Below the pieces are notes generated by a model. That model was not told the origin of the DNA and made no database searches. It saw nothing but the letters and a program-made list of their open reading frames with translations. Made by a program: the position numbers and the translations under genes. This document shows positions 10,107 through 60,856 of a DNA stretch of 64,000 nt, one piece after another; position 1 is the stretch's first letter; every line of letters begins with the position of its first letter. The stretch is taken from positions 1 through 64,000 of the IMG/VR virus record IMGVR_UViG_3300028833_000119; one strand, written 5' to 3'. The DNA comes from a virus. Taxonomy: Duplodnaviria > Caudoviricetes.

Positions 10107-10643
10107 TCAGTCGTCACCCTTTTTGTACGGATCGTCGATCAGCCCCTGTTTTATCAGCCATGCAATGCCTACAGCAACGGCGTCAGATTCATCATCGCAT
10201 GCATATTCCTGTTTTCCGACGAACTGTTCCAACGCTTCGGCAACTTCATTCTTTTCTGCAGAAGCATCATTTGTAATTTTCTTCTTAACAGTAACAGCTT
10301 CTATTTCCTGAAACTGGCGCTGCCCGAATGCCCATGCATACAAATCAGAAACACCGACAACACGATTCAGGATTGATAACACTTTCCCGCTGGCAGACGT
10401 TCCGCTCTTACGGAGAGCTTCTTCACGGACCAGCTCTGCATCCGGATGCGCTGTCAGCAGTCTGCGTAGTTCGGCTGCGATCTCAGACAATACTTCTCCA
10501 TGACATTTTTTCTTTCCGGCATAAGTCTTGTTATTGATATTGCTCAATTCCTACACGGAAACTGTGCGGTCGTCCGGGCTGTATCGAAGAACGGCAAACC
10601 CTGGACGGCGCATGGAAAAATCACAGGCGATGATTTCAGTCAC
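10107..10643 (-). CDS. ruvC: RuvC-like Holliday junction resolvase with in-frame TAG at 10551-10553
   Basis: GTG start coupled to the upstream TGA; MTEIIACDFSMRRPGFAV (first catalytic Asp) then TVSV*ELSN; downstream VREE and DESDAVAVG motifs. Confidence 0.85.
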
Positions 10644-10965
10644 AGGAATCACAACCCTGCTGATTACATGTTACCGTGATATGATCCGAAGAGATCGTAT
10701 TGTCGCCGCATGTTACCGAATACCAGTATTTATTTTCTCGTTCTTCTTTCTCAAGACACATCTTGTGACAATCCGGGCAGTTTGCGTGGTAACGCACACT
10801 GTACGTGTTTGTAAATGTATATGTCGTGCTGATGCACCCGTTGCCCCAGGAAGAATCCTGATAATACTCGTCCGGCGCAGCCCTGAACTTACACCCACAG
10901 TTCGGACATGTAAAAATAACAGATCCGTCTTTTATTTTATTCTTTCCGCTTGAAATGATTTCCAT
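10636..10965 (-). CDS. Zn-ribbon hypothetical protein
   Basis: FTCPNCGC...CPDC. Confidence 0.65.
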   Translation of the reverse strand: MEIISSGKNKIKDGSVIFTCPNCGCKFRAAPDEYYQDSSWGNGCISTTYTFTNTYSVRYHANCPDCHKMCLEKEERENKYWYSVTCGDNTISSDHITVTCNQQGCDSCD

Positions 10966-41831: not shown

Positions 41832-42371
41832 TCACTCCTTTGCATATTTCGCATAGTCATCGTTGCTCTTCTGAAGCGTCTTCTGCATTTTCTCCATGCG
41901 TTCCGCCAGAACGTGCTTTATATAACCTGCAATCGCTTTCTCGATATCGCGCTCAAGTTCCGGATTCCACGCATCAACAATCGCCCTCATTGACTTGCTG
42001 AATCCGCCGGTGCGACAGGCACTCTCGAACGATTCCTGCTTATCGCAATCCATCGTTCCAATGTAGTAACCGCCGGAGTAAATCTTATCCGTATAGAATG
42101 TGATGCCGGCTGTCCGCCTGTATCCGTCATCTTCGCTGTAGATGACCCTGTTCAGCACCACGAACGTCGGCTTATTGTTCGGCGTCCGCATAGCATCCGC
42201 CTCGATCAGCACTTTCAGCATCTCATCCAGAAAGATTCCGATCAACTGTAACTTGTTCTTGCGTTCCTGCTGTACCTGCGCTTCCTGCCGTTCAACCGTC
42301 CGCTCAACCTCGACTTCCAGTGCGTTGATCCGCTGCGCTTCCGCAATAAGTTCATCCATCAGTTTGCTCAT
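41832..42371 (-). CDS. Hypothetical coiled-coil protein
   Basis: Operon-packed ORF. Confidence 0.6.
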   Translation of the reverse strand: MSKLMDELIAEAQRINALEVEVERTVERQEAQVQQERKNKLQLIGIFLDEMLKVLIEADAMRTPNNKPTFVVLNRVIYSEDDGYRRTAGITFYTDKIYSGGYYIGTMDCDKQESFESACRTGGFSKSMRAIVDAWNPELERDIEKAIAGYIKHVLAERMEKMQKTLQKSNDDYAKYAKE

Positions 42372-42374
42372 TTC

Positions 42375-42623
42375 TCATTCTCCTTTCAGATACTCGTTGG
42401 TGTACATCGGCAGGAGTCTCAGATCGTCCTCGCTAATCTTCTCAGAAACTTTCGTTTCGGATCCATCGAAACCATCCAGAAGCTCGTCGTTCACATCACG
42501 CTCCATCTCCATGTCCGTGTCCTTCTTCTCCCAGAACAACCGCCGTGCTTCTTCGGCGGTTTCCGCTTCCACAATGAAGCTCGCCTTGTAGGTTTCGGTG
42601 ATCGTGACCTTGAAATTCTTCAT
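42375..42623 (-). CDS. Small acidic protein (DpnD/PcfM-like pattern)
   Basis: FKVTITETYKASFIVEAETAEEA. Confidence 0.6.
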   Translation of the reverse strand: MKNFKVTITETYKASFIVEAETAEEARRLFWEKKDTDMEMERDVNDELLDGFDGSETKVSEKISEDDLRLLPMYTNEYLKGE

Positions 42624-42624
42624 A

Positions 42625-43173
42625 TCAAATATCCTCCTCGCTGATCTCGGCATTATCCGGATCGCACACAGAAGCGTCCTCTTCATACGCACGTCCATAG
42701 TCCCAATCGCCGTGATACTGCACATCTTCAGTAAGATCGCACATCATCTGATTTATGCCGTGCCTGCTTTCCGACCACGCATCAAAGATACGATCGGCGT
42801 CTTCCTTGTTCTTCGCCTTGATGGTATACTCATGGGTCATCGTCAGCGTAACTTCCTTGCTGAACACCTTGTACGGCTCTTCCTTCTTCAGTTCGTCCTT
42901 ATGCTTTTCGATCACGGCATTCATAGCCGGGAAGATGTTGCTTCCCATGTTTTCGTCCATCGCATCCTTTTCCTGCATAACTTCGTCAACCATCTTGCCA
43001 AAGAGTTCTGCAGGGATCTCGTCGATGATGTTCTCTTCCTGCATCAGACGCTCGTTCAGCATTTCCCGTGTGTTGTACCGCTCCGCTTCGTAATGCGCAT
43101 CCAGAATCTCGCCATCGGTCAGGTCGATTACAACGTCCGTGCCCAGAATATTCCGCTTAATCTGCATAATCAT
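42625..43173 (-). CDS. Acidic hypothetical protein
   Basis: IDLTDGEI...; YTIKAKNKEDA. Confidence 0.6.
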   Translation of the reverse strand: MIMQIKRNILGTDVVIDLTDGEILDAHYEAERYNTREMLNERLMQEENIIDEIPAELFGKMVDEVMQEKDAMDENMGSNIFPAMNAVIEKHKDELKKEEPYKVFSKEVTLTMTHEYTIKAKNKEDADRIFDAWSESRHGINQMMCDLTEDVQYHGDWDYGRAYEEDASVCDPDNAEISEEDI

Positions 43174-43176
43174 TTC

Positions 43177-43572
43177 TTATTCCTCCTCTTCTCCGTCCAG
43201 TTCTTCTGCGATCACATACTCAGCAGTCAGCCAGAAGGATTCCATAAAGCTATCGTTATCGTTCAGCGCATCGTCGAACCGTTCTGCCGTGTTCCGCACC
43301 CATTCTTCGTCGTTTAGCACACGACGCAATGTCTTCCGCGATACCTCGATTCCGTGGTCGATATATACCGGCTCGTCTTCCGGTTCATCCTCGCCGATGA
43401 AATCTTCCAGTTTTGACTTGATATCTTCCATGTTGTAGTACAGGCGTCTTGCCCGGTAGACCTGTTCAATTTCCTCATCCGTCAGCTTAATTACCTGCCA
43501 CTGTGTGCATTGCGTTCCTTCTGCAATCTTCCGCTTCAGTTCCATTTCCATCTCAATGCTCCTCCTTCTCAA
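43177..43572 (-). CDS. Acidic hypothetical protein
   Basis: IKLTDEEIEQVY, a motif shared with 37387 and 42625. Confidence 0.6.
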   Translation of the reverse strand: MRRRSIEMEMELKRKIAEGTQCTQWQVIKLTDEEIEQVYRARRLYYNMEDIKSKLEDFIGEDEPEDEPVYIDHGIEVSRKTLRRVLNDEEWVRNTAERFDDALNDNDSFMESFWLTAEYVIAEELDGEEEE

Positions 43573-43792
43573 TCAGTCCGTATGCGATACACAGTTCCTC
43601 AAACTCTCCGGCAAGGTGATCGTAATCTTCGCCATAGATGATTGCGCAATCTTCCGGCGCTTCGCCATCTGCAATCGCCTGATCACGATCATCGCAAGGG
43701 ATATCATCCGCAGTAATTCCTTTGCTCTCCAACCAATCTTCCACAATGTCCACCATAGTTCCGAAAAATTCCATCCGTTCGCTGTGATCCAT
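43553..43792 (-). CDS. Acidic hypothetical protein
   Basis: FFGTMVDIVEDWLE...IYGEDYD. Confidence 0.65.
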   Translation of the reverse strand: MDHSERMEFFGTMVDIVEDWLESKGITADDIPCDDRDQAIADGEAPEDCAIIYGEDYDHLAGEFEELCIAYGLIEKEEH

Positions 43793-43846
43793 AAAAATCC
43801 CTCCTCACTTCTTATGGGAACATTTTCTGTTACGAATTAATTACGA

Positions 43847-44656
43847 TTATTTTAATTCTTCATAAATATCGAACACATCGTTCTTCTTGTAGCACACCAG
43901 ACAGGATTTGCAGCTCCGTCCACCGCAGTTAATCACGATTTCCGGATGATCTGCCAGATATTCCTTGCTGAACACTGTAAACCGATGATCAACCCACTCG
44001 CGGATACATTCCGGCACAGGATCGATCACATTGATTCGCAGACTGCTCCACACAAACATGACATTCTTCGGTTTGCCTTCCAGCCGGAACGCTTCTGCCC
44101 AGATTCCGGCATTCTTACTCCAGATTGCGCATGGAAGATAACCAGGGCAACTCCGCAGAAGATTCCGTGCTTCCGTCACGTTTTCAACATCGCCGAAACT
44201 CTGTACCCGATAAAAAAGAGCGTTGCCGAGATTCAGCTTCGCCCATATCTTTTTCGGAATCAGTACGTTCCGCAGTATGTATCCGTTTAATTTGTTCCGG
44301 TTGCTCAATCCTGCATACTGTCGTTGCATCGCTTCGGCATAACAGCTTGCGCAGATGATATCTGTCCAACCTTGCTTCGCAATTTCCTCCATAGCCATCT
44401 TCATCCGGGCGATGCAGTACACATTATCGTGTACTTCCGTGCTGACGGATGCTCCGCCGTCAAGTTTGCTGTTGTTTTCATCACTCTTGTGAAACACAAT
44501 CCAGATTGCGGTCACAAGCACGATATATTCCGCAACATTCAGCTTGCCTTTCCTGAGATATTTCTCCACAAGCGGATTTACCATTTCCGCAACCTTGCTA
44601 ACCATCTTCCCGAATGGTTTACCCTTGTACGTGGTGGCTTTCTTGAGATCGTTCAT
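43847..44656 (-). CDS. GP88-like Cys-containing phage protein
   Basis: NSKL...C...ICASCYA...YRVQSFGDV...WSKN...INCGGRSCKSCLVCY. Confidence 0.55.
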   Translation of the reverse strand: MNDLKKATTYKGKPFGKMVSKVAEMVNPLVEKYLRKGKLNVAEYIVLVTAIWIVFHKSDENNSKLDGGASVSTEVHDNVYCIARMKMAMEEIAKQGWTDIICASCYAEAMQRQYAGLSNRNKLNGYILRNVLIPKKIWAKLNLGNALFYRVQSFGDVENVTEARNLLRSCPGYLPCAIWSKNAGIWAEAFRLEGKPKNVMFVWSSLRINVIDPVPECIREWVDHRFTVFSKEYLADHPEIVINCGGRSCKSCLVCYKKNDVFDIYEELK

Positions 44657-44762
44657 GGTGTAATTCCTCCTTTGTGTAGTGTGAAATAATCTCTGACACA
44701 ATATCCTCGTATCAAATATATCGTGTCACAAAAAATGTACCGGATTCGTTACATCCGGCACA

Positions 44763-45209
44763 TCATTTCCTCACTTTCCATCCATATATATTCGCGACCT
44801 TGTCGCCGATTCTCTGTGTGTATCTCGTGATGTCTTTTCGAGTTGCTTTCCCGATCGCAACTTTCTGCATAAAGTACGATCTCTGCGCATGACTGATTTC
44901 AGGTTTCCATGCCCTGTATGTATACAGGTTCGTTCCGTCATGGTGGATATCACGGCACATCAGATCTCCGCGATCATCCACGAACCATGTGACGTAATCG
45001 CCACATGTTCCGGTCAGGCAATCTGCAATATTCGTGCTATGCAGAAGTTTGTATGCCTGATGCCGTCCGTCCCACAAACCGAGATCCGCAATGATGATGA
45101 TTTCCTCGCCGACTTCGATATTCAGATTTGCCCGTTCATCTTCCAGACCGTCCAGTTCGTCACCGTAGAGATCATTGCTCCAGATAACATTCATCTGCAT
45201 ACCCATCAC
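44763..45209 (-). CDS. Conserved hypothetical protein
   Basis: IIIADLGLWDG...HHDGTNLYTYR. Confidence 0.7.
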   Translation of the reverse strand: MMGMQMNVIWSNDLYGDELDGLEDERANLNIEVGEEIIIIADLGLWDGRHQAYKLLHSTNIADCLTGTCGDYVTWFVDDRGDLMCRDIHHDGTNLYTYRAWKPEISHAQRSYFMQKVAIGKATRKDITRYTQRIGDKVANIYGWKVRK

Positions 45210-45219
45210 TCATTCCTCC

Positions 45220-45462
45220 TCATTCGTTAAAAATACCGTCATGGTCTATTCCACAGACGGTAATATCGTGCTCTTCGATTTCCATATCGGGGTCTTCCGC
45301 TCCGTCAAGCTCGCTGTTATCCGCTACGATCATCTGTTTTGTCAACTTCTCAATCTCCTCATCCGTAGGGTCTGCATCAAGCGGAATCCGCAGGTACACA
45401 TGGTAGAATTTGCGAACACAGACATTTACAGGAACAATCTGCCATACATACTCGTCACTCAT
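45220..45462 (-). CDS. Acidic hypothetical protein
   Basis: Operon-packed ORF. Confidence 0.55.
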   Translation of the reverse strand: MSDEYVWQIVPVNVCVRKFYHVYLRIPLDADPTDEEIEKLTKQMIVADNSELDGAEDPDMEIEEHDITVCGIDHDGIFNE

Positions 45463-45773
45463 GCGAAACACTCCTTTCTACTATAAGCACTGGAATTACT
45501 TTCCAAATACCAGTGGCAACGGCGGAACACGTCCGCATATTCTGCCGGCATCTCAAGCAACCTATACCATGTTCCGTCAATCTCAATGATCTGAATACAG
45601 GCATCCCAGTATTCCGCACGTTCTTCCGGCGTAGGATTCTGTATTGCCATCTTTCCCCAGATTTTCCCTTTCGCTCCAAGGGAAAAGTGTTCGTATGTCG
45701 CCCATATATTTTTGTCATCGCTGACGAAAACGATTTCTCTGCCCTTGATCTTGTTTCCGACTTCAAGCTTCAT
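45459..45773 (-). CDS. Hypothetical protein
   Basis: Operon-packed ORF. Confidence 0.55.
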   Translation of the reverse strand: MKLEVGNKIKGREIVFVSDDKNIWATYEHFSLGAKGKIWGKMAIQNPTPEERAEYWDACIQIIEIDGTWYRLLEMPAEYADVFRRCHWYLESNSSAYSRKECFA

Positions 45774-45778
45774 CTCGA

Positions 45779-45994
45779 TCACTCCTTCGCACACAGGTCG
45801 TAGATGTCTGTATCACAGATAACTTCGTTGCAGTCGTTACATTCCAACGTGTAGCAACCCTGTCCAATTCCGTATTTGACAATGGCAACGTCGTGTCCGC
45901 AATGTTCCGACAACCTGCGGTACAGCAGGGTCAGATCGAAGTTGGGACTCTTGTCTGTCTTTGCGTTCGTGCTTGTAATCGTGATTTTCGCCAT
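45779..45994 (-). CDS. Hypothetical protein with Zn-ribbon-like motif
   Basis: EHCGHDV...LECNDCNEVI. Confidence 0.65.
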   Translation of the reverse strand: MAKITITSTNAKTDKSPNFDLTLLYRRLSEHCGHDVAIVKYGIGQGCYTLECNDCNEVICDTDIYDLCAKE

Positions 45995-46006
45995 TGTAAT
46001 TCCTCC

Positions 46007-46264
46007 TCATCCAATGTTGTAGTTATACAGTGTTCCGCCATGCTCCGATATAAGAAACGCTGGTATCGGTCGGCGATCTCTCTGCAAATCCCACGGGATA
46101 AATCCGTCACGATATTCCATACCGTCTTGCACGTTGTATTGAATAAAGCGGAAGCCTTCGCCCGGAAAATAGCTCCAGTATTCCATCCAATCCCCATTTA
46201 GTTTGTATTCATACACTCCAATTTTTTCCGCATGAAACAACGCAAGCCTTTCGTTTTCACTCAT
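46007..46264 (-). CDS. Hypothetical protein
   Basis: AEKIGVYEYK...YWSYF. Confidence 0.6.
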   Translation of the reverse strand: MSENERLALFHAEKIGVYEYKLNGDWMEYWSYFPGEGFRFIQYNVQDGMEYRDGFIPWDLQRDRRPIPAFLISEHGGTLYNYNIG

Positions 46265-46512
46265 GCTCTCCCCACCTTTCTGATTGTTCCGTCCTTCCGC
46301 AGTTGAAATCCCTGCATTTCGCCATAAGCATAAGCGTTGTCGTACATTCCGACATCGTATACAAACCACGTCTGTTCCGGCGTGATTCCGTATTCCGCAC
46401 GGTTCAGCGCATCAGCAATCTTCTGCGCTTTCTTCTCCGCAACTCTATGCGCACTCGCTGCGCTGTACAGGAATTCATGTCCTTTGATTGCTCTCGCAAC
46501 AACTATCATCAC
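46261..46512 (-). CDS. Hypothetical protein
   Basis: Operon-packed ORF. Confidence 0.6.
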   Translation of the reverse strand: MMIVVARAIKGHEFLYSAASAHRVAEKKAQKIADALNRAEYGITPEQTWFVYDVGMYDNAYAYGEMQGFQLRKDGTIRKVGRA

Positions 46513-46812
46513 TCATCCCTCCTCTCCGCATCTCTTCATTCCGGGATAGTACGCTTTTGTGCCCCAACGATTTGCTTCCGAATCAAGGCACAAACCATCT
46601 TTCATGTACCGCCTCATCACGGACAGGAATTCCAACACACATTCCTCAAATTGCTCCTCATCCTCTGCAATATCTGCATAATCATCCTCGCTTGCTCCGT
46701 CCGGGAAAATGCAGATCCACGCCATGAATCCTTCTTCATTGTTCATACTCCGCATCAGACGATCCATGGCTTTTAGATCGTCAATTCTGCTCCGCTTCAT
46801 CTGTTCCGTCAT
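46513..46812 (-). CDS. Hypothetical protein
   Basis: FMAWICIFPDG. Confidence 0.6.
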   Translation of the reverse strand: MTEQMKRSRIDDLKAMDRLMRSMNNEEGFMAWICIFPDGASEDDYADIAEDEEQFEECVLEFLSVMRRYMKDGLCLDSEANRWGTKAYYPGMKRCGEEG

Positions 46813-46961
46813 TACGCACACTCCCTTTCTTTTTCGTACATGAATGTAATCTTCCGGCAGGATACGCAGATATACTGGAATCCCTCGTAATCTTCCGCAA
46901 TGGATTCCAACTGTTCCTTCAGCGTCATCCGGTAGTCACGCTCGATGTGTCCGATCTTCAT
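46812..46961 (-). CDS. Small hypothetical protein
   Basis: Coupled start and stop codons. Confidence 0.45.
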   Translation of the reverse strand: MKIGHIERDYRMTLKEQLESIAEDYEGFQYICVSCRKITFMYEKERECA

Positions 46962-47098
46962 ATATTCACATCCTCTCCGTAATTCTTCCGCACATATTCC
47001 CGGGCAGATTCCTTGCTCGTCAGACTCGCTTCCACCCAATCGCCATTCACCCATACGCTCCAGTATCCGCTCGGCAGTTTCCGAATCTCGATATTCAC
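46958..47098 (-). CDS. Small hypothetical protein
   Basis: GTG start, RBS GAGGAG; IRKLPSGYWSVWVNGDW. Confidence 0.55.
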   Translation of the reverse strand: MNIEIRKLPSGYWSVWVNGDWVEASLTSKESAREYVRKNYGEDVNI

Positions 47099-47100
47099 GT

Positions 47101-47253
47101 TTATTCTCCTCTCTGATAGGCGTTCCTCACTTCTTCTTCCGTCATGGTCGGCGGATACGTGCATCTTCCACGTTCTCCGTCTACCACCCATTCTGCACCG
47201 CCCCAGTTGGCAGTGCGGGTTTCTTTGCGGATGTCCCAGATTGTGTAATTCAT
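47101..47253 (-). CDS. Small hypothetical protein
   Basis: MNYTIWDIRK..., 50 aa, RBS GGAGGG. Confidence 0.5.
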   Translation of the reverse strand: MNYTIWDIRKETRTANWGGAEWVVDGERGRCTYPPTMTEEEVRNAYQRGE

Positions 47254-47732
47254 CAATCATCCCTCCAATTCACATATGCTCTGCGGTTCCTGTCCTCGTA
47301 TTTTTCCGACATCTTCGCACTCACAAGCAATCCAAACAGAATTCCTGCACACTCCGCAACCTGCTCGTCTGTGCAATCCGTCCGGAGTAGGGGATTCAGC
47401 ATCCATCGCCGGGACAACCCTTCGTAGTACACGTTCCGGTTATACTGATTTCCGACAAGTTGCATTTTTCCGTACAGGTGATCGAAGAACATATTGTCGT
47501 TCACGCTGAAGTCGTACACAATTCCGTCAAGCAGGAATTTGATGTATCCTCTGCCCCAGATCGGCTTCGGCTCATCATTCTCAATGCAGTAATAACTCGC
47601 CATAACCTTGATAGACGGCTTCACTTCTCCGCCTTTGCTTTCCACAATTTCCGCAAGCTTTCCAAGCATTCTCGCCGTGTTGTACTCCCACGCTGTCAGA
47701 TATACACGTTCGCCTTCTTTGAAGATAAACAT
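47253..47732 (-). CDS. Hypothetical protein
   Basis: RBS AAGGAG. Confidence 0.6.
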   Translation of the reverse strand: MFIFKEGERVYLTAWEYNTARMLGKLAEIVESKGGEVKPSIKVMASYYCIENDEPKPIWGRGYIKFLLDGIVYDFSVNDNMFFDHLYGKMQLVGNQYNRNVYYEGLSRRWMLNPLLRTDCTDEQVAECAGILFGLLVSAKMSEKYEDRNRRAYVNWRDD

Positions 47733-47750
47733 TATTTCCGCACTCCTTCC

Positions 47751-48086
47751 TTAATCACACATCATGTTGTAAACATCCCAACTCTCGAACCGGATACGAT
47801 CTCCATCCCACATAGACGTATAGCCTTCAACTTCCGGCACGTTGTCCAGAACTGCATGATGAACGCATCCGCCACGGTTCCGTGTTTCGCTCTCGTCCGG
47901 GCTATGCCGACCATTACACATGGTAGTTTCCACATAGTATTCCGACACGACCGCGCCGTTATATTTCCCGCCCACGAATTCGCACAGGGTCAGACGCTGC
48001 TTCTTCTCGTGCGAAATCTTGTCGATCGCTTCCAGTTCCTTCCGCGCCTTGTCCTGCAACGCTCTGCGAATCTCCCAATTTTCCAT
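47751..48086 (-). CDS. Hypothetical protein
   Basis: RBS GAGGAGG. Confidence 0.6.
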   Translation of the reverse strand: MENWEIRRALQDKARKELEAIDKISHEKKQRLTLCEFVGGKYNGAVVSEYYVETTMCNGRHSPDESETRNRGGCVHHAVLDNVPEVEGYTSMWDGDRIRFESWDVYNMMCD

Positions 48087-48089
48087 GAA

Positions 48090-48221
48090 TCACACCTCCT
48101 CAAGCATCCACGCAAGATTCTCGATCTCCGCATTAAGTTCAGCTTTCTTTACCGGGTCGCTCGTCTTGACGAATTTCCGGCACAGTTTTTCGATTTCTTC
48201 CACGATCATTTCAGCACTCAT
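48090..48221 (-). CDS. Small helical hypothetical protein
   Basis: MSAEMIVEEIEKL..., 43 aa, RBS GAGGAGG. Confidence 0.5.
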   Translation of the reverse strand: MSAEMIVEEIEKLCRKFVKTSDPVKKAELNAEIENLAWMLEEV

Positions 48222-48224
48222 GGT

Positions 48225-48695
48225 TCAATCCTCCTCATTCATTTTCTCGATGTCATACCATCTTGCCATATCATCTTCCGTCATGCGCTCCATATGCATC
48301 CGGATAATTTTCGCTTTTAATTTCCGGATTTCCGCTTCAGCTTCACTGATAATTTCCGCATTTCCGTTGACGCAATCCGACATTGCATCACGTTCGTCCG
48401 TAATCTTGATGATCTGCTTGCACAATTTGTCGTTTTCGTCTATTGCTTCTTTCAGATTCTTCTGCGCATCAGCAAGCTGATGCTTCGTTTCGTCATGCAT
48501 ACGGCGCTCCGCACTGAAGCGCTCACGTTCCAGTTCCAAATCATTTACCGGCGAATCTCCGAAATCGTCCGTAATGTTTCTCCGGCATACATCGCAGATT
48601 CCGGCAAAGGTCATGGCAATATAGCTGTCCTTCCCGGCACTCTTAATAAGCGCGTCGATCTTCTCCAACAGCTTCAGTTCTTCCGCTTTAGTCAT
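48225..48695 (-). CDS. Coiled-coil hypothetical protein
   Basis: MTKAEEL...DSYIAMTF...NITDDF. Confidence 0.7.
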   Translation of the reverse strand: MTKAEELKLLEKIDALIKSAGKDSYIAMTFAGICDVCRRNITDDFGDSPVNDLELERERFSAERRMHDETKHQLADAQKNLKEAIDENDKLCKQIIKITDERDAMSDCVNGNAEIISEAEAEIRKLKAKIIRMHMERMTEDDMARWYDIEKMNEED

Positions 48696-48952
48696 AACAA
48701 GTCACTCCTCTCATAGGTTTCACGAATGATCACGTCATCCGCAATTTCCTCAGTTCCGCAATCGAACATCACAAGGTTGCACTCATCACCAACCTGCCAA
48801 TCTTCCGCGCCAGAAAATTCCCACAGGTTGCCGTTACAATCTTCACAGACCACAACATCTGTATTGCGGTCAATCTCCACAATTTTTGTCAGATTCGCGT
48901 ATATATTTCCGGACAGCATCATTGCCAGAATTCCGCAGATAATTTTCCGCAT
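48692..48952 (-). CDS. Hypothetical exported/OB-like protein
   Basis: N-terminal hydrophobic segment; DCNGNLWEF...WQVGD...MFDCGT...DD.I. Confidence 0.65.
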   Translation of the reverse strand: MRKIICGILAMMLSGNIYANLTKIVEIDRNTDVVVCEDCNGNLWEFSGAEDWQVGDECNLVMFDCGTEEIADDVIIRETYERSDLL

Positions 48953-48964
48953 ATGATCACCACC

Positions 48965-49186
48965 TTATGCATATTTCAGCCATTCATTCAGCGCAATCAA
49001 TTCCGCATCCGGCTTGACTTCCGTAATAATCCGAAGATATGTTTTGCTGCGGAGTTTGTCCTGCTTTGCACGTTCACGCCGATTCCGTACACGGTTCTTC
49101 CGATCTCCGAAGAAATCGTCCCACATTTTGTCGTACAAGGATTCCGCTTCCGTCAGCATGGCATGTTTTCCGACATAGATTTCCAT
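48965..49186 (-). CDS. Hypothetical protein
   Basis: RBS GAGG. Confidence 0.55.
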   Translation of the reverse strand: MEIYVGKHAMLTEAESLYDKMWDDFFGDRKNRVRNRRERAKQDKLRSKTYLRIITEVKPDAELIALNEWLKYA

Positions 49187-49338
49187 AGTTAGTTACCTCG
49201 CTTTCGCATATTTTTCCGCCATTTGGCGAATTATGCCGGGGAACTCGCCCCGGCAACACTCGACAAATCACAGATATTCACGGATAATATCGTTTCCGCA
49301 TACAATCACGATGATTCCGAACGCAATCCAGTACAGCA

Positions 49339-49506
49339 TCAGTTCCGCTCCTTTCCGATTAGCTCCGCAGTATACTTCCCGGCAGGAAGCGCACCAATTC
49401 GGATATATTCGCCGATACACTTTTCCGCCATGTCCTTGCGCTTGCACTGAAGCACCTTCACGCAGTCACCATTTTCCGCATAGATTCCGTACAGTTTGAT
49501 AGCCAT
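49339..49506 (-). CDS. Small hypothetical protein
   Basis: MAIKLY start, RBS GAAAGGAAGG. Confidence 0.55.
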   Translation of the reverse strand: MAIKLYGIYAENGDCVKVLQCKRKDMAEKCIGEYIRIGALPAGKYTAELIGKERN

Positions 49507-49671
49507 AGTCTTGACCTTCCTTTCGTGTTTGTTGTATAGTGTAAGGTGGTAGGGAAGTAGAATTTCCAGCATGAAACAACGTTGCTACGCAGTCGGCATT
49601 TCATGGTACTTTTCTGCATTCAAAAAGCACCATCGCATTTTCCGCAATGGTGCTTTGGGTCATGGTTTATA

Positions 49672-49923
49672 TCACAGTCTTTGCATTGCTATTTTCCGCA
49701 ATGAATTCCGCAACTGTTCTGTATCACTCAACTCCTTTTCTTTCTTCTGATGTTCCTTAACTCCGCCTTGTAAATATCCCTCCCTTATCAATTTTTCCGC
49801 AATGGCTTGTATGATAAACGAGTTGCTTGAAATTCCACGTTCAAGTCGTAATATGTCAAGTTTTTCGATAATTTCCGCATCCTTCACATCGACTCGAACC
49901 TCTATGTAATCTTTACCACTCAC
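49672..49923 (-). CDS. Ribbon-helix-helix-like DNA-binding protein
   Basis: IEVRVD...EKLD...GISSNSFIIQAIAEKL. Confidence 0.6.
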   Translation of the reverse strand: MSGKDYIEVRVDVKDAEIIEKLDILRLERGISSNSFIIQAIAEKLIREGYLQGGVKEHQKKEKELSDTEQLRNSLRKIAMQRL

Positions 49924-50104
49924 CCCTTTCAACCTCCTCAATTTCTGCAATAGTCATACTATGCACGTTCATACGTTCAAGTTTTTCTGCAATTGCCTTA
50001 TTCACAAAGGCATTAACAGACTCGTTATGCTCTTTGCAATATCGCTTTAATTCATCCGGAATTCCGCAATCATCCCAGATTTTAACCCTAAAACTCTTTG
50101 GCAA
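49913..50104 (-). CDS. Ribbon-helix-helix (Arc-like) DNA-binding protein
   Basis: FRVKI...ELKRYCKEHNESVNAFVNKAIAEKL. Confidence 0.7.
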   Translation of the reverse strand: MPKSFRVKIWDDCGIPDELKRYCKEHNESVNAFVNKAIAEKLERMNVHSMTIAEIEEVERGEW

Positions 50105-50283
50105 ATTTCACACCTCCTTATGCCAAAGCATAACAAATTCTGCAAAATTCCGCAATGGATTTTCCGCTCCACGCAGGGGAATTCCGCATTAGTGTAGAAT
50201 TCCCCTATGGGGAACGGGCGTGGAATTCTCCACGCTCCAAATTCCGCTATTCAATTTTCCAAGATAGGCTCCAGATTCTGTTA

Positions 50284-50814
50284 TCAAGCAGCCATTTCCT
50301 TCATGGCGATGGCGACCTTCAGCTCGTCCACCTGATCGTCCGTCAGTCCCTTAATCCACTGGTCAACGCTCACGTTCTTGACCTTCTTAACCTCGGACTT
50401 CTTCCCCTTCGGGGAAGCCTTCTTCGCCTTCGGAGCGGTCGGAGCCTTCGGCTCTTTGTAGTAAACCGGACGGCTCGCCTTTTCTTCCCAACCGCCGTTG
50501 AACCAGCTCCGCAGGGTGGCGATGCTCTTGATCTTGTTGACCTTCATATGGTCAACGGTGGAGTAGGTGTCCATGCTGACGATCAGGTTCAGGAACAGAC
50601 CCCAGCGATCTTCGGGAGTCTTGGCGCCACAGCACTTCTCCATGAGGGTCTTGACGGTCGGATGGTTCACAAACTGCGGAGCGAGAATCTCACCCTTGAC
50701 AAGTTTGATCAGACCGTTGTACACCCTGAAGGTGTCGTTGTCCCACATAGCCTTGGTGAATCCGGCGGGACGGGTTGCTTTCTTCGTGGCGTTCGTGTTG
50801 GTGTTGGTATTCAT
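50284..50814 (-). CDS. First early gene; Lys/Ala-rich hypothetical protein
   Basis: RBS AAAGGGG; strongly biased codon usage; PKAPTAPKAKK linker. Confidence 0.7.
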   Translation of the reverse strand: MNTNTNTNATKKATRPAGFTKAMWDNDTFRVYNGLIKLVKGEILAPQFVNHPTVKTLMEKCCGAKTPEDRWGLFLNLIVSMDTYSTVDHMKVNKIKSIATLRSWFNGGWEEKASRPVYYKEPKAPTAPKAKKASPKGKKSEVKKVKNVSVDQWIKGLTDDQVDELKVAIAMKEMAA

Positions 50815-50829
50815 GGTATACCCCTTTCT

Positions 50830-51685
50830 CTGGCATAGTGCCAGCTCTGATTATTATGGGCAATATCGCCCTATCGAACGTCCCCGGCGGGGGCGCTCAA
50901 GAGGACGGACGGTCGCTGTGCAAGGCGACAACGAGCAAACGCAGGTTGTCAGCACGTTGACCGTCAGTTGATCTCTGTGGTTCATGCAAGGGTAGTCACC
51001 GTCACGTCCTTCGGACGGCGGACGGCTTGCCTTCTTCGATGCAGCGATTTGGGCAGACTATCCCCCTCATGGTTCACGGTCGTGGTGGCTTGTCCGGACG
51101 GACTCCATGCTTTTACCTCCTTCTCGTCCTCCATCCCGGTGTCATCCCCACCTTCAGCCTGTACCGCCCTGCATGGCAGTAACTCTCAGATCCCGATCTC
51201 ACCATGCCCTGTCACGGGGAAAGAAGGGCGCAGCAAACACACCTTCCCTCCGGAGCATGGTTACTCCTCGGTGCTGATTCTCGGTCGGTCTATAGTACTC
51301 CCATACTCACATCCAGTTGCAAGCTGAAGGGCGACCGCCCTACACCGAAACCCTGTGCCATTCGTACACTGTCCTACTCTACTTTCGGACTGCCTACTCT
51401 ACTTTCGGCATGGTACTACTCCGGTACATTCCTCCGATGCAGTCATCCTGCTTTCTGGGGCTACTCAACCTCATCCCGAAGGCTATGGTACTGCTGTGCT
51501 GTGAGCAAACAACGAACACACAGTCAGTTGTCAAGGTACAGTCGTTGAGTAAACGGTGACGCTAGGTGGTAGGGAGTATCTGCAACCCTACTCTTGATCC
51601 AACCTAGCAGATCTTGACGGTCTTACACTGAGAGTGGCTTAGAATCACGGTTTCTCTCAGAACCCTTGTGCTCTCGATCCGCCGT
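50830..51685 (-). ncRNA. Candidate large structured ncRNA or 5' leader (~850 nt)
   Basis: No coding-like ORF; many short GC hairpins with cTTCGg/GAAA loops; purine-rich on the minus strand; lies directly downstream of a sigma70-type promoter. Confidence 0.4.
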
Positions 51686-52746: not shown

Positions 52747-54102
52747 ATGGATGAATACGTTGTAATTCAACAAATTATGAACCTTTACTGTTTCGATATG
52801 ACGAGGTATCGGTACATGACTCCTGATGGCGAGTACCACACCGTAAAACTTCCGTATGACGAGACGCTGATCTATGAGCACCTCGAGGGGAAAAAGACAG
52901 TGTGCGTGTATGCGCGTGAACGGAACACTATCTTCCACACGTTCGATGTAGACGAGTCGGATCCTATTAAGGTTCATCTAGTCATAGACAAGCTTGTTGG
53001 GATTGGAATACCTCGCGACAAGGTCTACGTTTCGACTTCCGGAAACAAGGGATATCACATCGACCTGTTTTTTGATGCGCCGGTGTGGAAGTCTGACGTA
53101 GAGGGAGTGTTCAACTATGTTGTGCGTGATCCTGTGATTGCGGCTATCAGGATGGAGTGCAAACCCGGACGGAAAGGCGCGATCAAAATCCCGCTTGGAA
53201 TCAATTTCAAAACAGGGCGCCGCTGCTGGTATGTAGACCGGGAGACACTGGAACCGATCGAGCGGAATGATTATGTATTTGAAATTCAGAAGATGAGCGC
53301 GGCGGACTTTGCGCAGATTGCGTATATCTGCAATAAAGAAAAGAAAAAGGAAGATATTCTGCTTGCGAAAGCAAATCAAAGGAAGCCGCAAAAGCCCAGG
53401 AAGTTTGTTGCGCGAAACGAGCCGACGATCACCGCGCCCGGGCAGCGGCACGACAAGATGCTTCAGAAAGCGGTGTGGCTGCGAGCGGTCGGCGGGGATG
53501 CTGATGATATTTATGAAGAGTTGATCAAATGGATTAATCGTCAGGACACATCGCTGATAGGAAGTTCGTGGAAAGAAATTGATGATGATGCGAGCCGGAT
53601 TGCGCGTGACGTGGCAAGACGGTACGAGGTGAAGGTAAAGCAAAAGAATAATATTGTTCGTCGTACTGATGAGATTGGCAGAAATGATATGGAGGTTATT
53701 CTCGCGGCGCCGACAAAGACAGCTCGTAAGGCTGCTTTTTTAATTTGTGCATATTGCAGGGCGTTTGGTGTATGCAGTATGGGATATGATCGGATGGCGC
53801 AAATTCTTGGCGTTACATACCAGACTGCGTTCAATGCAGTAAAAGCGTTGATTGAATGCGGTGCAATTGAAAAGAAGAAAGTTGGCGGTGTTGCTTATTC
53901 TGATGGCAAGCCTGTATTGGTTGCGAATGAATATGCTTGGATAACAAAACAAAGCGATGGTGGCATAAGGTTTACGATCAGTGAAGTAAGCTCTGATTTT
54001 CCGAGGGTTTATTATCGTGCGCTGTGCGATATATTTGATCAAGATATACTTGAGAAACGATTGACGAGATCTGAACTGGAGGAACTAAAAAAATGGAAAT
54101 GA
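52747..54102 (+). CDS. AEP-superfamily primase-polymerase/replication initiator with PriCT-like and wHTH domains
   Basis: EHLEGKKTVCVY, FDVD (motif I), STSGNKGYHIDLFF (motif II), IKIPLG; PGQRHDKML; C-terminal GYDRMAQILGVTYQTA HTH. Confidence 0.8.
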   Translation: MDEYVVIQQIMNLYCFDMTRYRYMTPDGEYHTVKLPYDETLIYEHLEGKKTVCVYARERNTIFHTFDVDESDPIKVHLVIDKLVGIGIPRDKVYVSTSGNKGYHIDLFFDAPVWKSDVEGVFNYVVRDPVIAAIRMECKPGRKGAIKIPLGINFKTGRRCWYVDRETLEPIERNDYVFEIQKMSAADFAQIAYICNKEKKKEDILLAKANQRKPQKPRKFVARNEPTITAPGQRHDKMLQKAVWLRAVGGDADDIYEELIKWINRQDTSLIGSSWKEIDDDASRIARDVARRYEVKVKQKNNIVRRTDEIGRNDMEVILAAPTKTARKAAFLICAYCRAFGVCSMGYDRMAQILGVTYQTAFNAVKALIECGAIEKKKVGGVAYSDGKPVLVANEYAWITKQSDGGIRFTISEVSSDFPRVYYRALCDIFDQDILEKRLTRSELEELKKWK

Positions 54103-55170: not shown

Positions 55171-55502
55171 ATGCGAAGGAATTGAAAGAGAAGATCAGTG
55201 AACAGCAGTTCAAGCTGAAGAAAGCGACGACGAGCGGGATGATGGTTGCGCAGGAGACAGACCGTTTGCGGAATATCCTGGTAAACAGCCTGGACGACAT
55301 TCTTGAGGCGCTTGATATGGCGATTTCTGCGGAGGACAGGATTGAATGCCTGACTGTGGAGATCGAATCTGCGGACGCGGAGCTGCAGGAGAAGGACGAC
55401 GAGATCAAGGCGCTGAAGGAAGAACTGGAAAAACCGAACGGTAAGAAGGTTGCCGGGAAACGTGCGAAACTCCCGGTAGTTGACGAATCCAGTGTCGAAT
55501 AA
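55167..55502 (+). CDS. Coiled-coil hypothetical protein
   Basis: Heptad pattern; 4-nt overlap with the preceding gene. Confidence 0.65.
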   Translation: MNAKELKEKISEQQFKLKKATTSGMMVAQETDRLRNILVNSLDDILEALDMAISAEDRIECLTVEIESADAELQEKDDEIKALKEELEKPNGKKVAGKRAKLPVVDESSVE

Positions 55503-55524
55503 AGTTTACAGTGAACTTTCATAC

Positions 55525-55908
55525 ATGCCGCTGAGTGAGGAAAGAGTCGTCCAGAAACTCATTCGCGACAGGTCGGTATAGGACCAATCTTTCTGGCCCA
55601 TGTTTGATCCGTCCGGTATATTGAGCACGGACGGCGTGTTTGCGCTGAACGAGGACGTACTGTGTATTTATGCGGACCTTGATTCGCTGATTGAGCGAGC
55701 GGGATTAAGTGAGCAGGAGCGCCTGACAGTGGACCTGCTGATGCAGGGATACACGCTTCCGGACATTGCTGACCATTACGGGAAGTCAAGGCAGAACTTC
55801 GAGCTTTTTCTGAAGAAGGCTTGCAAGAAGATTGTAAAGCGCAACAATGCCGACTGGGAAGAATGCACGGGTGCGCGGATCGACGACGGCGAGTGGGAGA
55901 GTGAATAA
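55525..55908 (+). CDS. Sigma region-4-like HTH protein with in-frame TAG at 55579-55581
   Basis: MPLSEERVVQKLIRDRSV*DQSFWPMFD...; AGLSEQERLTVDLLMQGYTLPDIADHYG HTH. Confidence 0.65.
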
Positions 55909-59678: not shown

Positions 59679-59731
59679 CATGCTTGCATATTTGCCGATT
59701 TATTTAATTATATAAGAGGGAAGGGATTATA

Positions 59732-60415
59732 TTGGCGACAGGACATAAAATTATCGAACCTTCCGGCAGGACTTCTGTTGCGATGATCGATAACCATGAA
59801 AGTGCCGTTGCGTATGTGAACGGCATATAGGAGAAGTGGTCCGGTTATTGCGATAAAAATTGGTTGAACGATTCCGGTGATGTGTATACGCCGGAATTGA
59901 AGATCAAGTATTTTCTTGACGGACTTGCTTATTTGCTGCTGATCGGAAACACGGATGGCATAGAAACGAACTATAAACGTGTGATGAATGCGAAGCGTGA
60001 GATTCCGGCGTCAAGCTGTCCGAGTGAAATCGAGAACCTGTTGTATGGAACCGGATGCTCGACGGATTACGCAGAGGAAGAGGAAGCCCAGTTCCGGGAT
60101 ATGCTGGACAGGCTTGACAGCAAAGCGGAGCCTTATGAATGCAGGAAAACAAAACGAGACAGGAAATGCAGCCTGTTTGCGAAGAAACTGCAGAAAGGCA
60201 TACCGGACGGAGACTGGTATCTTGTTGATACGGAAGGAAGATTCAGGGTCGGCGACCAATGCTATATTATCGAGGATAACGCTGTACAGTACCAGCCGGT
60301 CCAGACGGAGTACGGCAATTATTACGCGATGGATAAAGTCCTGTATGCTGGCGGCAAATTCTACGATATGAATTATGACGAAGTGATTGTCCTTCAAGTC
60401 GGGACGGAGACGTAA
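59732..60415 (+). CDS. Conserved hypothetical protein with in-frame TAG at 59828-59830
   Basis: TTG start after the GAGGGAAGGG RBS; MATGHKIIEPSG...AVAYVNGI*EKWSGYCDKNW continues in frame into ORF 59864-60415. Confidence 0.7.
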
Positions 60416-60428
60416 AACCCGTCTGCAT

Positions 60429-60535
60429 AAGACGCACACAGCAAACCATATACATATTAAAAACTTCTTAATAATAGTTTTCCGGCAACGCCTCCTGACA
60501 GTGCGGACCAGTGCCGGCCTTTTTATTGCGTCTTG
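60429..60535 (+). repeat. AAGAC(G/C)C...CAGCAAA RNA repeat, copy 2
   Basis: aagacgca/tgcgtctt stem with internal hairpins. Confidence 0.7.
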
Positions 60536-60541
60536 TCTTAT

Positions 60542-60615
60542 TGCCTGTTAGCTCAGTCCGGAAGAGCGTCGCACTGTTAATGCGAATGTCACAGGATCGA
60601 AGCCTGTACAGGCAG
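60542..60615 (+). tRNA. tRNA-Asn (GTT), CCA not encoded
   Basis: Acceptor tgcctgt/acaggca; anticodon arm tcgca-ctGTTaa-tgcga; T arm acagg-atcgaag-cctgt; G73. Confidence 0.9.
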
Positions 60616-60713
60616 CGAATTGCGGTATAAGTTTTCGGACTTATATCTGGGTGGCCGGATGCGTCCGGCTTCCTGCACCAAGCTGTGCGAAACATCCGCC
60701 GAACGGCGGACAT

Positions 60714-60793
60714 GGCCGTGTATGCAAAATGGAAAAGCAGTGGCTTCTAAACCCATGGAATTATTCTGGGTTCGACTCCCAGCTCGGCCACCA
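60714..60793 (+). tRNA. Amber suppressor-type tRNA (anticodon CTA, 60747-60749) with Leu-like body and encoded CCA
   Basis: Acceptor ggccgtg/ctcggcc, A73, CCA; D arm tgc-aaaatggaaaa-gca; anticodon arm gtggc-ttCTAaa-cccat (C31:C39 mismatch); ~9-nt variable region; T arm ctggg-ttcgact-cccag. Confidence 0.8.
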
Positions 60794-60856
60794 AAGACGC
60801 TTGCAGCAAACTTGAAGCATCAGACTGTTAATCTGAAGAAGCTAATCGGCGTCTTG
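60794..60856 (+). repeat. RNA repeat, copy 3, with tRNA-Asn-like anticodon arm
   Basis: aagacgc/gcgtctt stem, CAGCAAA and tcaga-ctGTTaa-tctga. Confidence 0.75.

Follow-up and report, generated by a model that had tools for sequence, protein, structure and literature searches.

The gene at 59732–60415 (plus strand) raises two questions: how is a reading frame decoded that meets a TAG codon shortly after its start, and why is that TAG there? The gene lies in the 64-kb window analyzed here, which covers the first 64 kb of an IMG/VR virus record of 85,213 bp (an uncultured tailed phage). A Shine-Dalgarno-like purine-rich stretch, AAGAGGGAAGGGA (59714–59726, plus strand), is separated by a 5-nt spacer from a TTG start codon at 59732–59734, and the frame then runs through 32 sense codons, the TAG at codon 33 (59828–59830; context ATA TAG GAG AAG), 194 further sense codons and a TAA at 60413–60415. 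The initial annotation had laid out the locus in this way, and its coordinates are correct as written. The ribosome binding site region is conserved among relatives, where it appears as '*REGIL' in stop-to-stop translations.

One conserved gene spans the TAG

A search of 5.8 billion proteins returned 71 homologs. About 10 of them are 224–243 amino acids (aa) long and span the N-terminal 32 residues together with the TAG position; about 60 are database entries of 144–197 aa that start at scattered points past the TAG. To avoid the bias of gene callers, we compared the DNA of related loci. The reading frame is unbroken over the TAG site in all 38 related loci (viral and metagenome contigs), in which the N-terminal motif G[HY][KR]I.EPSG[KR] is conserved, and many full-length proteins are among the 373 family members gathered by a profile search of 1.84 billion cluster representatives. 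Alignment across the TAG, which the initial annotation had proposed as a check, thus finds continuous homology both in the 38 loci and in the 373-representative family. The same annotation had held that homologs starting after the TAG, or without the N-terminal 32 residues, would speak against a single gene; since the homologs retain these 32 residues, its core reading stands. A conserved gene that contains an in-frame stop and remains homologous beyond it, a feature of stop recoding that we looked for, is present here.

We also modeled the protein with AlphaFold (AF2) from 29 sequences. The model has a pLDDT of 78 overall and of 76–92 over the first 40 residues, and consists of an N-terminal β-hairpin, a helical middle and a small C-terminal β-domain, with the TAG residue inside a helix formed by residues 22–35. 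Based on the homology across the TAG and on this model, we conclude that 59732–60415 is one conserved 227-codon gene whose in-frame TAG is read through.

The opposite reading takes the TAG as a true terminator, so that the locus would hold a 32-residue peptide and a separate 183-residue protein starting at TTG 59864, or a pseudogene. The code-11 ORF list does start at 59864, and the roughly 60 database gene calls likewise begin past the TAG. However, the post-TAG calls begin at scattered positions, and the start at 59864 is not a conserved one: this TTG is the codon of a conserved leucine (in NWLND) for which relatives use CTG, TTA or CTA, and, as the initial annotation had claimed, no purine-rich stretch was found preceding it. 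Furthermore, conservation extends to the first 32 residues, which are also confidently modeled, the wider family is contiguous with leucine at the site, and no other gene of the genome ends in TAG (see below). We consider termination at this codon hardly credible.

TAG most likely encodes leucine

Comparison with relatives indicates that the TAG at codon 33 most likely stands for leucine. The sense codons actually found at the site are CTT, CTT and CTG, CTT again in the locus L062, and one isoleucine codon (ATC). In the corresponding column of distant family members, leucine occupies 35 of 39 positions, isoleucine two, and methionine and phenylalanine one each. The suggestion in the initial annotation that a leucine sits here in a helix is supported on both counts, leucine being the most likely residue and the site lying within the predicted helix described above.

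The same assignment emerges from G002, a 40-kb relative whose genes break up under code 11, with 14 high-scoring ORFs ending in TAG and a coding density of 0.78. Compared with four other records, the coding-strand TAG sites of G002 align with leucine in 43 of 54 comparisons and with glutamine in none. Among its 15 TAG sites with at least one sense-codon comparison, leucine is unanimous at nine and in the majority at three more; at one of them, KAS[L]NAD, leucine is found in 18 of 18 homologs. The exceptions are one TAG site opposite tyrosine (three times) and one opposite arginine (four times). Two other genes that contain TAG in the window phage (described below) agree: the sigma-like gene of G002 carries an extra TAG where all others have the leucine of VVxxLIR, and the TAG column of the RuvC gene holds leucine in homologs at 44–47% identity and isoleucine in some others.

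Current pipelines would decode this TAG as glutamine (code 15), the published recoded phages read TAG in this manner, and four database homologs (P0002, P0004, P0006 and P0032) carry glutamine at the site. The P0002 gene, however, has a TAG in its DNA and matches its database record solely when this TAG is translated as glutamine; the record therefore shows glutamine because the pipeline translated TAG with code 15. We suspect the same artefact in P0004, P0006 and P0032, as well as in the close RuvC homologs P0231–P0246. Against glutamine also stand the true sense codons at the site, which are leucine or isoleucine codons, the G002 comparisons, in which the code-15 feature of TAG columns aligning with glutamine is absent, and the properties of the phage tRNA presented in the next section (A73 and G1-C72, with a long variable arm in relatives). 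A glutamine at codon 33 is in our judgment very improbable. If the clade reads TAG as leucine, code-15 pipelines misassign the residue in database proteins, and those listed here (P0002 confirmed, the others suspected) hold a wrong one.

A candidate suppressor tRNA lies downstream of the gene

About 300 nt downstream of the gene lies a tRNA(CUA), a candidate amber suppressor that probably accepts leucine (60714–60793, plus strand; 39 bits in the Rfam tRNA model). A phage-encoded tRNA whose anticodon matches the recoded stop, a further feature of suppressor recoding, is therefore present. The tRNA has A73, an encoded CCA end and G1-C72. Its D stem is 3 bp long and its D loop, which contains GG, 11 nt; the variable region measures 9 nt and the anticodon stem 5 bp. 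Three of its stem pairs are non-standard, and its score lies above the Rfam tRNA threshold. Across 15 distinct tRNA(CUA) sequences, the CUA anticodon and A73 are invariant and the CCA is encoded in 13. Compensatory substitutions occur in the acceptor, anticodon and T stems, with pairing in 89% of cells. A covariation score of 0.878 compares with 0.21 for shuffled alignments (none of 500 shuffles reached 0.878) and with 0.11–0.22 when the pairing partners were slid. In the relatives, the variable region is anything between about 5 nt and a class-II hairpin arm, the latter in tRNAs of 84–88 nt.

ARAGORN labels the window tRNA as tRNA-Pyl, a label that derives from the CTA anticodon alone. tRNA-Pyl has a compact D loop, a 3-nt variable loop and a long anticodon stem, to which the 11-nt D loop with GG, the 9-nt variable region and the 5-bp anticodon stem of the window tRNA do not fit. 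A73 and an indifference to the anticodon and the variable arm agree with bacterial leucyl-tRNA synthetase (LeuRS). A73 speaks against a Gln, Trp, Ser or Glu identity, and bacterial tRNA-Gln has G73 and U1-A72. A73, as a feature of bacterial tRNA-Leu, is present in all 15 tRNA(CUA) sequences. The tRNA(CUA) appears to derive from a tRNA-Leu and, judging from the protein alignments and these tRNA features, is probably charged with leucine. Global similarity to 21 reference phage tRNAs does not discriminate between identities, with leucine ranking first, weakly, for 6 of the 15, and a blastn search of the tRNA(CUA) against phages gave insignificant matches to the T arm alone, some of them to tRNA-Leu.

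The window and 13 distinct relatives share the order of gene and tRNA(CUA), often with a tRNA-Asn between them. Three loci without a TAG in the gene (L031, L062 and L063) have no tRNA(CUA) in the fetched downstream sequence. In six relatives that carry the TAG, the fetched flank likewise contains no adjacent tRNA(CUA), so that the link between the TAG in the gene and the presence of the tRNA is suggestive. In the relative G004, no tRNA(CUA) was found in its 26 kb. L062 and L063, which have no tRNA genes there, retain only the repeated elements (see below) and, about 150–220 nt past the gene, a short piece resembling an acceptor stem and T arm that ends in CCA, which is possibly the remnant of a lost tRNA.

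TAG is absent from gene ends and confined to three early positions

The strand-restricted ORF calls on the coding strands of the phage end in TGA (76), TAA (65) and TAG (2), and codon-score gene calls end in TAA (66), TGA (66) and TAG (1). None of the three TAG-ending calls was retained: one is a junction at 2967 that couples non-coding-looking sequence to the gene at 2382–2966, one is an ORF over a tRNA, and one is an antisense shadow. No real gene therefore ends in TAG among the approximately 133–143 genes of the 85-kb phage, and the relatives G001, G003 and G004 likewise show none among 74, 40 and 32 genes, respectively. TAG is thus depleted as a terminator, as looked for in suppressor recoding.

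Only three genes of the phage have a believable in-frame TAG, one each, in each case 30–34 codons into the gene and with GA as the next two bases. The first is the gene at 59732–60415. The second encodes a RuvC-type resolvase (10107–10652, minus strand) with its TAG at codon 34 (10551–10553; GTG TAG GAA). The read-through product covers positions 2–147 of the 148 in Pfam RuvC, spanning the TAG, and its catalytic N-terminus precedes the TAG. No RuvC gene was found in five related records, which are fragments, and a single-protein locus scan for RuvC was also empty; going by the homologs, the position of the RuvC TAG is probably conserved. The third is a sigma-factor-like helix-turn-helix (HTH) gene (55492–55908, plus strand; PHROG sigma factor phrog_3512 at 7e-9) with its TAG at 55579–55581 (GTA TAG GAC), which is codon 30 provided that the start is GTG 55492. 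The TAG of this gene occurs at the same codon in five of five relatives.

Other candidates were rejected. TAG-rich plus-strand ORFs at 42100–50850, visible solely when TAG is treated as a sense codon, are antisense shadows of minus-strand genes, arising from CTA leucine codons read in reverse, and eleven further TAG-containing N-terminal extensions were discounted for their low coding scores or junk-like peptides and for the absence of a TAG-GA context. Elsewhere in the window, a 451-aa protein (52747–54102, plus strand) shows a match to the archaeo-eukaryotic primase domain of the TOTE conflict system (PF22548, 3.9e-9).

The long virion genes of the window phage are free of TAG. A concentration of recoded codons in late structural and lysis genes, a code-15-type feature, is accordingly absent in the window phage and present in G002 (L055–L056), whose late genes on the plus strand at about 5–38 kb are heavily recoded with TAG. 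G002 carries 21 TAGs in ORFs of at least 200 codons, and 19 of the 21 are followed by a purine.

Conservation of the TAG as a codon suggests a gate

The TAG of the gene at 59732–60415 is kept at the exact codon 33 position in 27 of 30 non-redundant relatives, the other three having CTT, CTT and CTG. This recurrence of the same codon is far beyond chance, with the reservation that the relatives share ancestry and the 27 are not 27 independent events. In the set below 90% amino-acid identity, TAG is kept in 20 of 22 relatives. By comparison, each of four invariant leucine columns in these 22 sequences is written with 3–5 codons, the commonest reaching 50–67% and TAG never occurring, and synonymous codons are also scrambled at the invariant leucine, glycine, proline and valine columns of the same alignment. 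Two relatives, L009 and L025, have CTT at the site, yet carry a TAG 9 codons upstream.

The neighboring codons are biased towards A-TAG-GAG. Among the 30 relatives, the codon before the TAG is GTA in 8 of 8 cases when it encodes valine, ATA in 4 of 4 for isoleucine and GCA in 4 of 4 for alanine, and a glutamate after the TAG is encoded by GAG 20 times and by GAA once; in the long genes of the phage, the genome-wide shares of GTA, ATA, GCA and GAG in their codon families are 19%, 8%, 29% and 34%, respectively. The base 3' of the TAG is G in all 30, although the residue encoded next can be E, D, G or V. We rejected the reading of UAGGAG as an internal Shine-Dalgarno sequence, because there is no in-frame start at a workable spacing and the other TAG sites lack UAGGAG.

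We favor, as the probable explanation of these patterns, that the TAG at codon 33 is read as leucine by the tRNA(CUA) of the phage and is kept by selection as a gate or attenuator of the gene. We base this reading on the conservation of TAG at the codon level, the shifted TAG in L009 and L025, the two other TAG-containing genes, the early positions and the skewed context. According to this model, the phage clade has eliminated TAG from all of its gene ends, and the tRNA(CUA), encoded about 300 nt downstream and charged by the host LeuRS, would decode the UAG of codon 33 as leucine. With too little charged suppressor tRNA, host release factor 1 (RF1) would free a 32-residue peptide; with enough charged tRNA(CUA) to outcompete RF1, the full 227-residue protein would be made, and the amount or timing of the protein would track the ratio of suppressor tRNA to RF1. 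Leucine charging, the competition with RF1 and the gating role are the parts of this explanation that we infer.

A simpler account would regard the TAG as a seventh, rarely used leucine codon of a clade in which TAG was reassigned, with codon 33 kept by ancestry and no regulation involved. In its favor, TAG as leucine holds across the clade, the conservation counts come from kin and are non-independent, and three relatives with CTT, CTG or ATC at the site retain an intact gene. Several observations count against it. First, the synonymous codons at invariant columns are scrambled, while TAG persists in 20 of 22. Second, the neighboring codons are skewed to A-TAG-GAG. Third, L009 and L025 lost the site but gained a TAG nearby. 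At last, the sigma-like TAG keeps its position, the RuvC TAG probably does likewise, and all three TAGs fall within the same narrow distance from their starts. We regard inheritance without regulation as unlikely.

Extending the gate to all three genes, we tentatively propose a minimal regulon, which we consider possible rather than probable: the tRNA-Leu(CUA) would be kept for three UAGs, each 30–34 codons into its gene, and the outputs (a sigma-like factor, a RuvC nuclease and the DNA-binding-like protein of 59732–60415) would report the ratio of tRNA to RF1. Such a set could also be the seed of the late-gene recoding of the G002 type. A single clade apparently spans an evolutionary series, from no TAG terminators with two or three fixed TAG gates to late-gene TAG in the relative, and this series makes the idea that recoding begins as regulation testable.

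The spacer between the gene and the tRNAs

The gene is separated by 126 nt from a tRNA-Asn(GTT) (60542–60616, plus strand; 60.9 bits in the Rfam tRNA model), which precedes the tRNA(CUA). The spacer contains an element (60429–60535, plus strand) that begins with AAGACGCACACAGCAAA and ends in GCGTCTT, and within it a hairpin at about 60482–60520 is followed by a U-run, the two together covering about 60482–60530. Equivalent hairpins in three relatives (L006:3766–3802, L013:3274–3310 and L018:2792–2828) match the Rfam abiF RNA (RF03085) with 37.7–40.2 bits, at or above the gathering score; the window hairpin gave no match to this family at E ≤ 1. Two roles are conceivable for the hairpin behind the gene: that of a terminator, or that of a decoy which mimics the antitoxin RNA of an abortive-infection system.

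These elements bear on the proposal that gene and tRNAs share one transcript, which the initial annotation had raised as a route to feedback: release at the UAG, or the protein itself, would alter the output of the tRNAs. The gene directly precedes the tRNA-Asn and tRNA(CUA) in the window and the 13 distinct relatives, and the spacer showed no sigma-70-like promoter. However, the hairpin with its U-run and a repeated motif lie between the gene and the tRNAs, and the six TAG-bearing relatives mentioned above have no adjacent tRNA(CUA). Feedback of this kind is in our estimate quite unlikely.

The repeated motif, AAGACNCNNNCAGCAAA, is present in four plus-strand copies in the window (56680, 60429, 60794 and 60867), with 0.1 expected by chance. 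Three of the four copies flank tRNAs, one of them beginning right after the CCA end of the tRNA(CUA), and the motif is kept in relatives, often 0–6 nt past the tRNA(CUA). Conceivable roles are those of a processing site, of a promoter or of a structured RNA. The element right behind the tRNA(CUA) includes a second stretch resembling a tRNA-Asn anticodon arm (60816–60837, with a ACTGTTAAT loop), which is 77% identical to 60565–60586.

Clues to the function of the protein

Searches with the window protein gave no match in Pfam or PHROGs at E ≤ 0.1 (nor to phrog_8012 at E ≤ 1), by tblastn against 50,697 phage records, or by Foldseek against PDB and BFVD at E ≤ 0.001, and a scan of bacterial genomes found no prophage copy. 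The best VIA-align match was the C-terminal β-domain of the IstA transposase (Z 6.1, rmsd 2.7 Å over 57 residues), which is too weak to name the fold, and we did not adopt an IstA-type assignment; the homolog P0005 as a structure-search query gave no usable match either. The distant members of the family were more informative. Their C-terminal β-domain matches phrog_8012 (87 aa) with E-values of 1e-5 to 3e-9, and some homologs (P0151, P0212 and P0223) have an N-terminal HNH endonuclease domain fused before the whole module, that of P0223 matching phrog_1035 at 1.8e-15. Another homolog, P0094, has a GIY-YIG domain. The gene lies just upstream of genes for an exonuclease-like phosphoesterase, a phrog_3314 protein and the large terminase. 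Our guess would be a protein that binds nucleic acids, encoded close to where the packaging module begins.

Comparison with known systems

Stop-recoded gut phages with suppressor tRNAs that use code 15, in which TAG is reassigned to glutamine, include crAss-like, Lak, Garnet, Topaz and phAss-1 phages (bioRxiv 10.1101/2021.08.26.457843, PMC9523058, PMC10607447). The window phage resembles them in its tRNA(CUA), in the in-frame TAG of conserved genes, in the proposed role in the timing of expression and in a host presumed to use the standard code. It differs in two respects: TAG aligns with leucine here and not with glutamine, and whereas code-15 phages have many TAGs in structural and lysis genes, the window phage has three, at early fixed positions, and none in virion genes. 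In the literature that we searched, whose coverage is incomplete, the published isotype predictions for phage suppressor tRNAs are Gln, Trp, Ile and Tyr, with Leu absent, and we found no leucine reassignment in phages.

TAG is read as leucine in NCBI codes 16 and 22 (chlorophycean and Scenedesmus mitochondria). These codes share the reassignment proposed for the phage, but they belong to organellar genomes and involve no conflict between phage and host; given no evidence of relatedness, the shared meaning of TAG would be convergence. Another precedent is supP/leuX of E. coli, a leucine-inserting amber suppressor in which a tRNA-Leu has the CUA anticodon, known from laboratory mutants of the host gene. 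A tRNA-Leu tolerates the CUA anticodon because LeuRS ignores the anticodon. The phage tRNA(CUA) and supP/leuX would be alike in that a tRNA-Leu body bears CUA and that suppression varies with the base after the UAG. Unlike supP/leuX, the phage tRNA(CUA) is a natural, conserved and diverging gene, whose variable arm differs among copies, between about 5 nt and a full class-II hairpin. A TAG that is conserved as a codon within a skewed context is a potential model for the competition between suppression and RF1.

The regulatory logic proposed here has a counterpart in prfB, the autoregulated gene of RF2, in which an early in-frame UGA is passed by a +1 frameshift that is sensed by RF2 itself. 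In both systems an in-frame stop lies about 25–35 codons into the gene, and the output depends, or in the phage would depend, on how abundant a translation factor is. In the phage, unlike in prfB, the competitor of RF1 would be a tRNA devoted to suppression, and none of the gated proteins is a translation factor.
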